A stretch of DNA of 64,000 nucleotides from Escherichia phage vB_Eco_TB37: sequence record OZ035850, one strand, 5' to 3'. Below, piece after piece: positions 56,695 through 61,377 of the stretch (the first letter of the stretch is position 1; each line of letters starts with the position of its first letter). The position numbers and the translations under genes were made by a program. A model generated the notes under the pieces. It ran no database searches and was not told the origin of the DNA. It was given only the letters and a program-made list of their open reading frames with translations.

Positions 56695-59600
56695 ATGGCT
56701 ACTTTAAAACAAATACAATTTAAAAGAAGCAAAACCGCAGGTGCACGTCCTGCTGCTTCAGTATTAGCCGAAGGTGAATTGGCTATAAACTTAAAAGATA
56801 GAACAATTTTTACTAAAGATGATTCAGGAAATATCATCGATCTAGGTATTGCTAAAGGCGGTCAAATTGATGGAAATGTAACTATCAATGGTCTTTTGAG
56901 GTTAAACGGTGATTATGTACAAACAGGTGGAATGACCGTAAATGGACCTATTGGTTCTACTAATGGCGTAACTGCAAAAGTTTTCAGATCTACACAGGGT
57001 TCATTTTATGCAAGAGCAACAAACGATACTGCAAATGCCCATCTTTGGTTTGAAAATACAAATGGCTCAGAACGTGGCGTTTTATATTCAAAACCGCAGT
57101 CTGAAAATGAAGGCGTAATTACAATGCGTGTTCGTCAAGGAACCGCTGCGGGAGCTCAAAATTCAGAATTTCATTTCATTTCTACTGATGGTGGTATCTT
57201 CCAGGCACGCAAATTAACTGCTTTAACTTCTATTAGTACACCAACTATTAGTGTTAATTTAATTAATCATGATTCTAAAGCCTTTGGACAATACGATTCA
57301 CAATCATTGGTTCAGTATGTTTATCCTGGAACTGGTGAAACAAATGGTGTAAACTATCTTCGTAAAGTTCGATCTAAGTCAGGCGGAACTATTTACCATG
57401 AAATTTGTACAGCTCAGACTGGACTGGCAGATGAAATGTCATGGTGGACTGGTAATACACCGTTATTTAAACTATATGGTATTCGTAACGACGGTAGAAT
57501 GATTATTCGCAATAGCTTGGCCATTGGTACTGTGACGCAAGGGTTTCCGTCAAGCGATTATGGAAATGCTGGGGCACTAGGAAATATATTTCTTGCTTTA
57601 GGCGATAATGGAACTGGTCTAGTTTATAGAAAAACTGGTGTATTTGATTTCGTTGGTTCTGGTTTATCTTTGGCATCTATCACACCTGATAGTTTCCGTA
57701 GTACTCGTAAAGCAATATTTGGACGCTCAGAAGACCAAGGTACAACATGGATTATGCCTGGAACGAACGCTGCATTTTTGTCAGTTCAAACCCAAGCTGA
57801 TGAAAACACTGCTGGAGACGGTCAGACACATATTGGCTATAACTCAGGCGGAAAAATGAACCACTATTTCCGTGGTAAAGGCAAAACCAATATTAATACC
57901 CAAGAAGGCATGGAAGTTAACCCTGGTATTTTGAAATTGGTAACTGGCTCTAATAACGTACAGTTTTATGCTGACGGAACAGTATCTTCAATACAAAGAA
58001 TTAAATTTGATAACGGATTAGTTCTTACTGGTGCTAGACCCGACGGTATTCAACTTGACGCTCCTACAACAACAGATGGCACTAAAACTATATTGTGGGC
58101 CGGCGGTACTCGCCCAGGTCAGAATAAAAGTTATCTATCTATCAAAGCATGGGGTAATGCCTTTAATGCATCTGGCGATCGTGCTCGTGAAACAGTTTTT
58201 GAAGTATCAGATGGACAAGGTTACCATTTTTATTCTCAACGAGTTGCTCCCGGATCAGGTTCTACCGTCGGACCTATTCAATTTCGAGTTAATGGTGGTT
58301 TATTAACTTCTGGTGGTATTACATCATCTGGTTCTATTGTTACTGAATCAAGTTTAGTTGCAAATAATGGATTATCTGTAAATGGTCAGGCTAAATTCGG
58401 TGGAACGGCAGATGCATTAAGAATTTGGAATGCCGAATACGGTGCTATTTTCCGTCGCTCAGAAACAGCATTGCATATTATCCCGACTCCTAAAGATGCT
58501 GGTGAAAGTGGTGGAATAAGTAATCTCCGCCCGTTAAGTATTAGTCTTAATAATGGTATGGTACAAATGCGCCATTCTGTTACGTTAGGCGATGATGGCG
58601 CTGGCGGTAATATGATTACTGTGGACAACGATAACAAACATGTTGTTGTTGCTAGTAATAGTCGTATTGCTCCTAATTTCAGAATGCAATTAGGACAATC
58701 ATCTTATATTGATGTAGAATGTACTGATAGAGTTCGCCCGGCTGGAACAGGTTCATTTGCTTCTCAGAATAATGAAAATGTCCGGGCGCCGTTGTATATG
58801 AATATAGAGCGTACTGCTACTTCTGAATACATTCCTATTATTAAACAACGTTATGTTCAAGGTAACGGTTGCTATTCATTGGGGACTTTAATTAATAATG
58901 GTAATTTCCGAGTTCATTATCATGAAGGCGGAGATAACGGTTCTTCAGGTCCACAGACTGCTGATTTTGGATGGGAATTTATTAAAAACGGTGATTTTAT
59001 TTCCCCTGGTAAATTAGGTGCTGGTGCGGTTCGTATTGGTACTGACGGTAATATCACGGGCGGTTCATTACCTAACTTTGCTAACTTGAACTTGACATTA
59101 GACCGTAAAGTCAATACCCGAATGGTTTCTTATTCAGGTACTGGTGGTTGGTATAAATTAGCCACTGTAACAATGCCACAATCCACTTCAACCGTCACAT
59201 TCGAAATTGCTGGTGGTAATGGCTATAATGTCAACACCCCACACCAATGCGTTACTTCGAAAATTGTTTTAAGAACTTCGAACAATAACCCGAAAGGTAT
59301 TAACGCTGTTGTTTGGTCGATGGATACCGGTCAGGGTATTAAGAATGTTGCAACGGTTAATACATCAGGCGATGTTTATGACATCTATGTAAACGTTGGT
59401 ACTTATGCTCAGGCGCTAGCAGTTTCTTATTATGCTACTCCTAATGCTACCATTAACCAGGTATTTGCAACGGACCAACCGGGTGCAACAGAAACTGCGG
59501 TTGAACTTCCTGAGACGGCTATTCAAGGACAGGTTGCTAGTGTTCTGAACAACTTGGCTCCTACCCCTAACGGTGTGAAGCGTTATGAAGCCGATTCTGA

Positions 59601-60555
59601 AATAGCTATTAATAGCCAAACCGGTATTCGTATCAGAAGCAATGGCGATAAAACTGGTTCTGTGGCTACAATGTTACGAAATGACGGCGGCAGTTTTTAT
59701 ATTCTGTTTACAGATAAAAATGCCACCGATGGCGCAGCAACTGTTAATGGTGATTGGAATAGTAAACGTCCTTTCGCAATTAACTTAACAACCGGCGAAG
59801 TGATGATGAATAATGGCATAGCTGTTCGCAGCGCTGCTTTATTCTATAATAGCATAAACGTCAAAGATAATGGTTCTATTAACTTTGATAAATCAGGCGC
59901 TAACCCGAGAAATATGAGAATATTTCATGCTGGTGATGCTTCTCGCGGTAACCGTATTGAAATTGCTGATGAAACTAACTATATTGCTTACTTTGAAAAA
60001 ACTCCAGGTGGAGCTAACCGCTTTGTAGTAAATAATGCTACTGTGGCTGGTGTTAATCAAATGAATTCATTTGGTATTAACATCAATAACGCACTTGGTG
60101 GAAACAGTATAGCATTTGGTGATAATGACACTGGCATTAAACAATCCGGTGACGGACTTCTTGATATCATTACTAACGCCGCACGACGAATGAGATTCCA
60201 GACGGGTGACACTTATTCTGACATGAATATAAATGCTCCAAACGTTTATATTCGTTCTGATATTCGTTTGAAATCTAATTTCAGACCTATTGAAAATGCT
60301 CTTGAAAAGGTTGAGCAGCTTGATGGTTTAATCTATGATAAATCTGACTATATAGGTGGTGAAATTGTTCAGACTGAAGCAGGTGTTATTGCTCAGAAAT
60401 TGAACGAAGTATTACCTGAAGCAGTTCGTGAAGTTGAAGATATTAAGGGTAATAAAATACTCACTATTTCTTCTCAATCCCAGATTGCTCTTCTAATTGA
60501 AGCTGTGAAAACACTTTCTGCTCGTGTAAAAGAACTTGAATCTAAACTTATGTAA
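56695..60555 (+). CDS. 37: Long tail fibre distal subunit gp37 with C-terminal intramolecular-chaperone-like domain
   Basis: 1286 aa; C-terminal about 100 aa with SDIRLK motif and coiled-coil tail. Confidence 0.9.
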
Positions 60556-60556
60556 A

Positions 60557-60574
60557 AGAGGGCTTCGGCCCTCT
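60557..60574 (+). other. Stable stem-loop (UUCG tetraloop) between genes 37 and 38
   Basis: AGAGGGC-TTCG-GCCCTCT, no T-tract. Confidence 0.5.
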
Positions 60575-60585
60575 AAGGATTTTTA

Positions 60586-61377
60586 ATGGCAATTGTAGGT
60601 GTTCCTGGCTGGATTGGCGAATCTGCCGTGAATGAAACTGGACAACGCTGGATGGATGCTGCGATGAAAGCTGTTCGTGTTTCAGTTCCCGGTTGGATGA
60701 GTTCAATGGCTGGACAATCTAAAGAAGTATATTATAGCGTTGGTGCTAGCAATTCTTACAATAAAGACACACTAATAAATTGGATAAAAGCCCAAGGCAG
60801 TACTCCTGTTGTTATTACTATTACAGGAAATATTGTTTCTCAATCTACTGGTGTTCCATGCTTAGATTTTCCTAGCTCATTAACTAATGCATATGTTACC
60901 TTAAATATTAATAGTGGGGTTCATGTATTAGGTCGGGGAGGAAATGGCGGAAGTAACTCTGCTGGCGGAGCAGGAGGAACTGCAATAAATAACGGAATTG
61001 GAACTCGTTTAAGAATAAACAATAATGGTATTATTGGTGGCGGCGGAGGTGGCGGCGCTGGTGCTAGATACCATCCTTTCCCTCAAATGGATATGATATT
61101 TGGTGGCGGCGGAGGTCGTCCATTTGGCGCAGCTGGCGCAGCAGGAGGTGGCGCAGCGGCAGCATCCGCTGGTACAATTTCTGCTCCTGGTAAAGGTACT
61201 GTTTCTGGGGTTCACTATGGAGGAAATGGTGGAGATTTGGGAGCTGCTGGCAAATCTTCATATATTCAAGGTGGTACTGGAGGAACTGTTCACTCGGGCG
61301 GTGCGGCTGGTAAAGCTGTTACCGGTAATGCTCCAACTTGGACTAAAGTTGGTACAATATATGGTTCAAGAGTATAA
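60586..61377 (+). CDS. 38: Receptor-recognizing adhesin gp38 (T2/T6 type, glycine-rich motifs)
   Basis: 263 aa, conserved N-terminus MAIVGVPGWIG, poly-Gly motifs separating variable segments, conserved C-terminus. Confidence 0.85.
   Translation: MAIVGVPGWIGESAVNETGQRWMDAAMKAVRVSVPGWMSSMAGQSKEVYYSVGASNSYNKDTLINWIKAQGSTPVVITITGNIVSQSTGVPCLDFPSSLTNAYVTLNINSGVHVLGRGGNGGSNSAGGAGGTAINNGIGTRLRINNNGIIGGGGGGGAGARYHPFPQMDMIFGGGGGRPFGAAGAAGGGAAAASAGTISAPGKGTVSGVHYGGNGGDLGAAGKSSYIQGGTGGTVHSGGAAGKAVTGNAPTWTKVGTIYGSRV

Follow-up and report, generated by a model that had tools for sequence, protein, structure and literature searches.

A C-terminal peptidase S74 intramolecular chaperone domain with a predicted self-cleavage site in the long tail fibre protein gp37 of Escherichia phage vB_Eco_TB37

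The g37-g38 locus

The window, a stretch of 64,000 nucleotides from Escherichia phage vB_Eco_TB37 (sequence record OZ035850), is ordinary Tequatrovirus backbone, with ~97% identity to many isolates over 25 kb, and its tail fibre genes lie in the order g34-g35-g36-g37-g38-t. The following features are considered first:

56695..60555, + strand, stop codon included: gene 37, long tail fibre distal subunit precursor (open reading frame and translation; phrog_1699; annotations of homologous phages)
56695..60255, + strand: predicted mature gp37, residues 1-1187, 126.4 kDa, with the end ...NAPNVYIR (from the position of the cut in S16 and fPS phages, PMC7917993, and the identical T2 junction)
60040..60255, + strand: conserved beta-strand stalk segment, residues 1116-1187, ending NVYIR (strands in the model; motif common to E. 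coli prophage tail-fibre proteins)
60256..60552, + strand: intramolecular chaperone (IMC) domain, residues 1188-1286, 99 aa, 11.0 kDa (Pfam S74; model; Foldseek; identity to T2 and QOTSP)
60586..61377, + strand: gene 38, T2-type adhesin of 263 aa, which probably caps the cleaved gp37 trimer (PF05268; PF21721; phrog_2056)

The open reading frame of gene 37 starts with ATG and runs uninterrupted, giving a protein of 1286 aa and 137.4 kDa. This protein matched phrog_1699, 'long tail fiber protein distal subunit', over its full length (E = 0), and the homologous gene in other phage records is likewise annotated as the long tail fibre distal subunit. Residue 1188, encoded by TCT (nt 60256-60258), is the first of the motif SDIRLK, and from this Ser to the C-terminal Met1286 there are 99 residues. 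The stalk segment lies immediately 5' of the predicted cut, and its motif was also found in E. coli prophage tail-fibre proteins.

Family membership of the C-terminal domain

An earlier note, made from the sequence alone, had likened the last 100 or so residues of gp37 to the self-cleaving chaperone domains of phage fibres and endosialidases, with the Ser of SDIRLK (codon 1188, nt 60256..60258) as the likely nucleophile. The resemblance was borne out and these coordinates proved exact: the Pfam family Peptidase_S74 (PF13884, "Chaperone of endosialidase") matched residues 1188-1245 along the whole of its profile (positions 1-58 of 58, E = 2.2e-14), and position 1 of the profile fell on Ser1188. 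The score of 53.9 bits exceeds the gathering threshold of the family, 22 bits, and the match lies well outside what chance would produce, so the profile similarity to S74 chaperones that could be looked for was indeed present.

Other searches gave the same assignment. The last 139 aa of gp37 matched the C-termini of many PHROG tail-fibre families (best E = 1.9e-51), and residues 1100-1286, used as a query, gave 468 proteins, PF13884 being present in nearly all among the matches listed. Sequence comparison with the PDB gave the tip of S16 gp37 (6F45, E = 8.5e-4) and the ICA domain of MYRF (7DC3, E = 4.7e-3). The IMC shares 98.6% identity with that of phage vB_Eco_QOTSP, and in a Pfam scan the S74 domain of QOTSP gp37 also began at the equivalent Ser. 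NCBIfam gave no match for either gp37 or gp38, which carries no information, as these phage families are outside that library. The S74 domain occupies the last 99 of the 1286 residues, with beta-strands directly upstream in the structural model, and these residues are confirmed as a peptidase S74 intramolecular chaperone domain. Release of this domain after folding of the trimer is predicted.

Predicted fold

A model of residues 1100-1286 was generated with AlphaFold2, using an alignment of 101 sequences as input; it is a monomer model, and the trimer-dependent active site is outside what a single chain can represent. The mean pLDDT was 81, rising to 92-98 in the IMC part, where short helices and strands precede a terminal helix of 26 residues:

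60472..60549, + strand: C-terminal helix, residues 1260-1285, predicted trimeric coiled coil of the IMC (model helix H161-186; heptad pattern)

The C-terminus of gp37 is therefore modelled with a mixed alpha/beta IMC fold that ends in a long helix. For this helix pLDDT was ~95-98, and the residues assigned to heptad positions a and d (I1264, L1267, V1271, L1274, V1278, L1281 and L1285) follow a clean 3-4 spacing. Both the helix and its hydrophobic spacing agree with the earlier description of this part of gp37 as a coiled-coil end, and a coiled coil of this kind has been described in the IMC of T5 pb1 (PMC4690869) and in MYRF (PMC8326128). Residues 1116-1187 were modelled as beta-strands at pLDDT values of 54-78, which are to be expected when a trimeric beta-helix is modelled as a single chain.

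When the model was compared with the PDB using Foldseek, the top 11 matches were all IMC or ICA domains, from MYRF (7DC3), endoNF (3GW6) and GA-1 (3GUD), and no other structure appeared at E < 0.5. The best match was the MYRF ICA domain (E = 1.5e-5, TM 0.45-0.60).

Catalytic dyad and scissile bond

A Ser-Lys catalytic dyad has been defined in endoNF and MYRF, and in MYRF both S587A and K592A abolish cleavage (PMC8326128). The residues of gp37 that align with it are:

60256..60258, + strand: codon (TCT) of Ser1188, predicted nucleophile and P1' residue (position 1 of PF13884; aligned with endoNF Ser911 and S16 Ser638; invariant)
60271..60273, + strand: codon of Lys1193, predicted general base of the Ser-Lys dyad, S-x4-K (aligned with endoNF Lys916; invariant)

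In the K1F genome record, residues 911 and 916 of the endosialidase are Ser and Lys, and these align with Ser1188 and Lys1193 of gp37. Conservation was assessed in the alignment of 101 sequences, with 30-93% identity to the query, in which only five columns are invariant: Ser1188, Asp1189, Lys1193, Gly1230 and Pro1241 (S89, D90, K94, G131 and P142 in the numbering of the query). Ser and Lys are both kept in all 100 homologues that cover the site. The alignment with the catalytic Ser911 of endoNF, together with this invariance, agrees with the choice of the SDIRLK serine as the likely nucleophile.

The first raw alignment had seemed to contain 14 exceptions to the Ser/Lys pattern. Eleven of these ('NK') were prophage tail proteins without S74, in which NDTGIK had been misaligned onto SDIRLK; the other three have no recognisable S-x4-K at this position, and one of them, P0032, carries the unrelated PF01594.

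The P1 position, in comparison with the dyad, varies freely among the homologues (F, Y, R, S, A, T and others). In T5 pb1 the bond cut is Thr1263-Ser1264, and S1264A blocks autoproteolysis (PMC4690869); the cut is therefore N-terminal to the Ser. The cut in S16 gp37 is given in PMC7917993 as DLNVS^SDRRIKK. By analogy, the scissile bond in gp37 is expected to be Arg1187-Ser1188, in which case Ser1188 would serve as the nucleophile and occupy P1' as well.

A different possibility is that the C-terminus is cut in trans by a host or phage protease, the S74-like region acting only as a trimerisation coiled coil. This would be compatible with the title of the 1986 paper on T2, which speaks only of 'proteolytic processing' and names no protease. 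However, the Ser-x4-Lys pattern is strictly kept in 100 diverse homologues while P1 varies, a combination that agrees with autocatalysis but not with a site that an external protease would recognise, and replacement of Ser by Ala blocks cleavage in both T5 pb1 (PMC4690869) and MYRF (PMC8326128). Cleavage in trans is, therefore, considered highly improbable.

In endoNF and T5 the active site is completed by an Arg/Asp 'folding sensor' from the neighbouring subunit (Arg1250/Asp1239 in T5). Upstream of the predicted cut in gp37, Arg1164, Arg1165, Arg1167, Asp1172 and Asp1176 are possible candidates for such a role, but the sequence singles out none of them.

The gp38 adhesin and the type of fibre tip

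The product of the gene downstream of g37 matched the Pfam family GP38 (PF05268, E = 8.1e-69) and phrog_2056, 'tail fiber protein; host specificity' (E = 2e-101), and poly-Gly runs are visible in its translation. Its N-terminal region matched a second family:

60586..60711, + strand: gp38 N-terminal attachment domain, residues 1-42, with Trp9, Trp22 and Trp37 (PF21721 Gp38_N, E = 7.3e-18)

The three Trp residues are at positions equivalent to those in S16 and T2. According to PMC6851490, three conserved Trp residues plug S16 gp38 into the base formed by gp37.

The phage T4 proteins were analysed with Pfam as a control. T4 gp37 contains Collar (PF07484) and Phage_fiber (PF03335) and has no PF13884, and T4 gp38, a chaperone of 183 aa, matched no family, whether adhesin or other. 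The pattern is the opposite in the present phage, where S74 is present in gp37 and neither Collar nor Phage_fiber was found.

These results bear on whether gp37 could itself be the receptor-binding tip, as in a T4-type fibre, with gp38 acting merely as an assembly chaperone. The gene order g36-g37-g38-t is indeed the same as in T4. However, gp38 of the present phage belongs to PF05268 and PF21721 and T4 gp38 to neither, and the reversed domain content of the two gp37 proteins in the Pfam control refutes a T4-type arrangement, which we regard as scarcely credible. As gp37 carries S74 and gp38 falls in the adhesin families, and T4 has neither, the sequences support a long tail fibre tip that is T2-type rather than T4-type. 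The preference of the earlier note for a T2-type fibre thus stands, both through the downstream PF05268/PF21721 protein and through S74, which occurs in T2 and S16 gp37 and not in that of T4.

A rule has been described by which each subtype of gp37 C-terminus is paired with the matching subtype of gp38 N-terminus, as lock and key (PMC3157838). The pair studied here follows it, since the gp37 junction and IMC and the gp38 N-terminus are all of the T2 subtype.

Proposed maturation pathway

The S74 domain might assist folding but stay on the virion fibre, with gp38 attaching elsewhere or only transiently. In its favour, what becomes of the serine in phi29 is less clear (PMC4690869). Against this, the catalytic Ser and Lys and all the other invariant positions are intact in gp37, and processing has been reported for T2, whose junction is identical: a passage in PMC3157838, citing Drexler et al. 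1986, describes cleavage of the T2/T6 gp37 C-terminus followed by capping by gp38. In S16, according to PMC7917993, autocleavage of the IMC exposes the gp38 docking tip, and it is only through removal of the IMC that this docking surface becomes exposed. Retention of the domain is, therefore, very unlikely.

The reading preferred here, to which a probability of roughly 0.93 is given, is that gp37 is made as a precursor whose IMC guides folding of the trimer, that the precursor then cleaves itself at Arg1187-Ser1188, and that gp38 docks on the new end and recognises the host. The present analysis establishes the identity of the domain, its catalytic residues, its fold, the partner gene and the orthology to T2; cleavage, its dependence on the trimer and the order of events are what we infer from the related systems. 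Three copies of the IMC would join via the coiled coil 1260-1285 and nucleate or template the trimeric beta-helical fibre tip. Correct folding of the trimer would allow Lys1193 to activate the hydroxyl of Ser1188, and the Arg1187-Ser1188 bond would then be cut in each chain. The 11-kDa IMC fragments would leave as a trimer, and the remaining 126.4-kDa gp37 would end in NVYIR. The new C-terminus, ...NAPNVYIR, would form a flat tip and is proposed as the docking platform on which one copy of gp38 would dock by its N-terminal three-tryptophan helical bundle. Recognition of the receptor on the host would then be a function of gp38 and not of gp37.

A variation on this pathway is also conceivable, in which the T2-subtype junction (Arg at P1, tip strand NVYIR) forms a docking platform structurally other than that of S16, or in which the 11-kDa IMC trimer acts again once it has been released, for example in timing or proof-reading the loading of gp38. 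P1 is occupied by Arg in this phage and by Ser in S16, and the docking surface is therefore not identical to that in the only solved gp37-gp38 complex. None of the results points to either possibility, and such a variation is judged very unlikely.

Significance

A self-cleaving chaperone on T2-type gp37 is already known, from T2 (1986), S16 (2018) and the fPS phages (2021). No new biological question is raised by the present case, as it is already firmly established both that T2-type gp37 is processed and how S74 domains act. Two recent papers, on PP01 and on Straboviridae gp38, were consulted for direct evidence of cleavage in a T2-type gp37, and neither of them mentions it.

The assignment has several practical consequences. 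Annotations should give residues 1-1187 as the mature gp37 of the virion. As P1 is Arg, the C-terminal peptide of the mature protein is the same as a tryptic peptide of the uncleaved precursor, so tryptic MS cannot locate the C-terminus of mature gp37 and another protease or an intact mass is required. For expression of recombinant fibre tips the IMC must be retained. Host specificity would be carried by gp38, and swaps of gp38 would need a matching T2-type N-terminal domain.

Comparison with known systems

The endosialidase of K1F, the MEROPS type example of S74 (3GW6), has the same dyad as gp37 and matches it in Pfam family and in fold. It differs in being a tailspike enzyme of a podovirus, with an IMC of ~154 aa that contains large insertions, and its cleaved end bears no adhesin cap.

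Autoproteolysis by Ser-Lys in T5 pb1 and in the MYRF ICA domain, the latter being the best structural match to the gp37 model (7DC3), needs trimerisation, which is driven by a C-terminal coiled coil (PMC4690869, PMC8326128). The outcomes are different from that proposed for gp37, in that T5 pb1 binds its receptor directly after cleavage and the cut in MYRF frees a transcription factor without any maturation of a fibre.

In the gp37-gp38 pair of S16 (6F45), gp37 likewise ends in an S74 IMC that starts from Ser followed by D-x-R-x-K, and S16 gp38 has three conserved N-terminal Trp residues, as does gp38 here. S16 belongs to another genus (Gelderlandvirus), however, and the sequence similarity to the present gp37 is weak (E = 8.5e-4); S16 gp37 has 749 aa, an IMC of 112 aa and Ser at P1, compared with 1286 aa, 99 aa and Arg in the present protein.

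In the fPS phages, which are also Tequatroviruses, the published junction DVYIR^SDGRLKI is nearly the same as NVYIR^SDIRLKS in the present gp37, and both cleavage after Arg and docking of gp38 on the resulting tip had already been predicted (PMC7917993). The gp37 sequences upstream of the junction and the receptor specificities differ.

The T2 proteins are orthologous to those described here. Beyond the C-terminal region, the present gp37 is only ~61% identical to that of T2 and is 55 aa shorter, and in the BLASTP alignment nothing in T2 is paired with its residues 1050-1121. Similarly, only the first 147 residues of the present gp38 align with T2 gp38 (74% identity), the C-terminal part being unaligned in BLASTP. 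Around the proposed site of cleavage and docking, on the other hand, the two phages are very much alike. The last 139 aa of gp37 share 77% identity, 45 of the first 47 residues of gp38 are identical, and the S74 domain of T2 gp37 begins at the equivalent Ser. The gene order is the same, the g37-g38 intergenic hairpin is identical, and in both phages the junction reads NAPNVYIR^SDIRLKSNF and is followed by an IMC of 99 aa.

The whole of gp37, the distal subunit of the long tail fibre, is a new mosaic allele (56695..60555, + strand). Only one of the 686 matching phage records, that of PaulHMueller, covers at least 80% of gene 37, and does so at 85% nucleotide identity. At the protein level, T2 is about 61% identical across residues 1-1049 and QOTSP (phage vB_Eco_QOTSP) 80% identical across residues 767-1286, while residues 805-922 are matched by PHROGs of unknown function. 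Two modules were located within the protein:

58168..58542, Gp34_trimer domain (PF21446), gp37 residues 492-616, Pfam, E = 3.6e-10
60040..60255, stalk motif [24 protein letters not shown], gp37 residues 1116-1187, immediately before the intramolecular chaperone (S74) domain

Gp34_trimer is a module common to the proximal and distal fibre subunits. It was likewise found in gp37 of T2 and QOTSP, whereas in T4 gp37 the match is sub-threshold.

The stalk motif shares 56-63% identity with E. coli prophage sequences annotated 'phage tail protein' that have no S74 domain (e.g. the homologues P0038, P0042 and P0047). One stalk module is therefore coupled to differing tip or chaperone solutions.

Upstream of gene 37, the hinge protein gave a Pfam match to ILEI (interleukin-like EMT inducer, PF15711; E = 1e-8, 36 bits, cut-off 27 bits), a family whose name is surprising in the hinge protein of a phage fibre:

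54846..55961, gp35 (hinge protein), ILEI match at residues 58-126

Between gene 37 and the adhesin gene g38 lies a further feature, with the sequence GAGGGC-UUCG-GCCCUC:

60557..60574, g37-g38 intergenic hairpin, 7-bp GC-rich stem, UUCG tetraloop

Its minimum free energy is -13.4 kcal/mol, but the z-score is only -1.7. It looks like a conserved, stable intercistronic hairpin of a type that has long been known from T4, possibly acting as an mRNA stabiliser or a weak terminator. An identical hairpin is present in T2 and a C(UUCG)G loop occupies this position in T4, whereas in S16 the stem differs in sequence and the loop is UACG.
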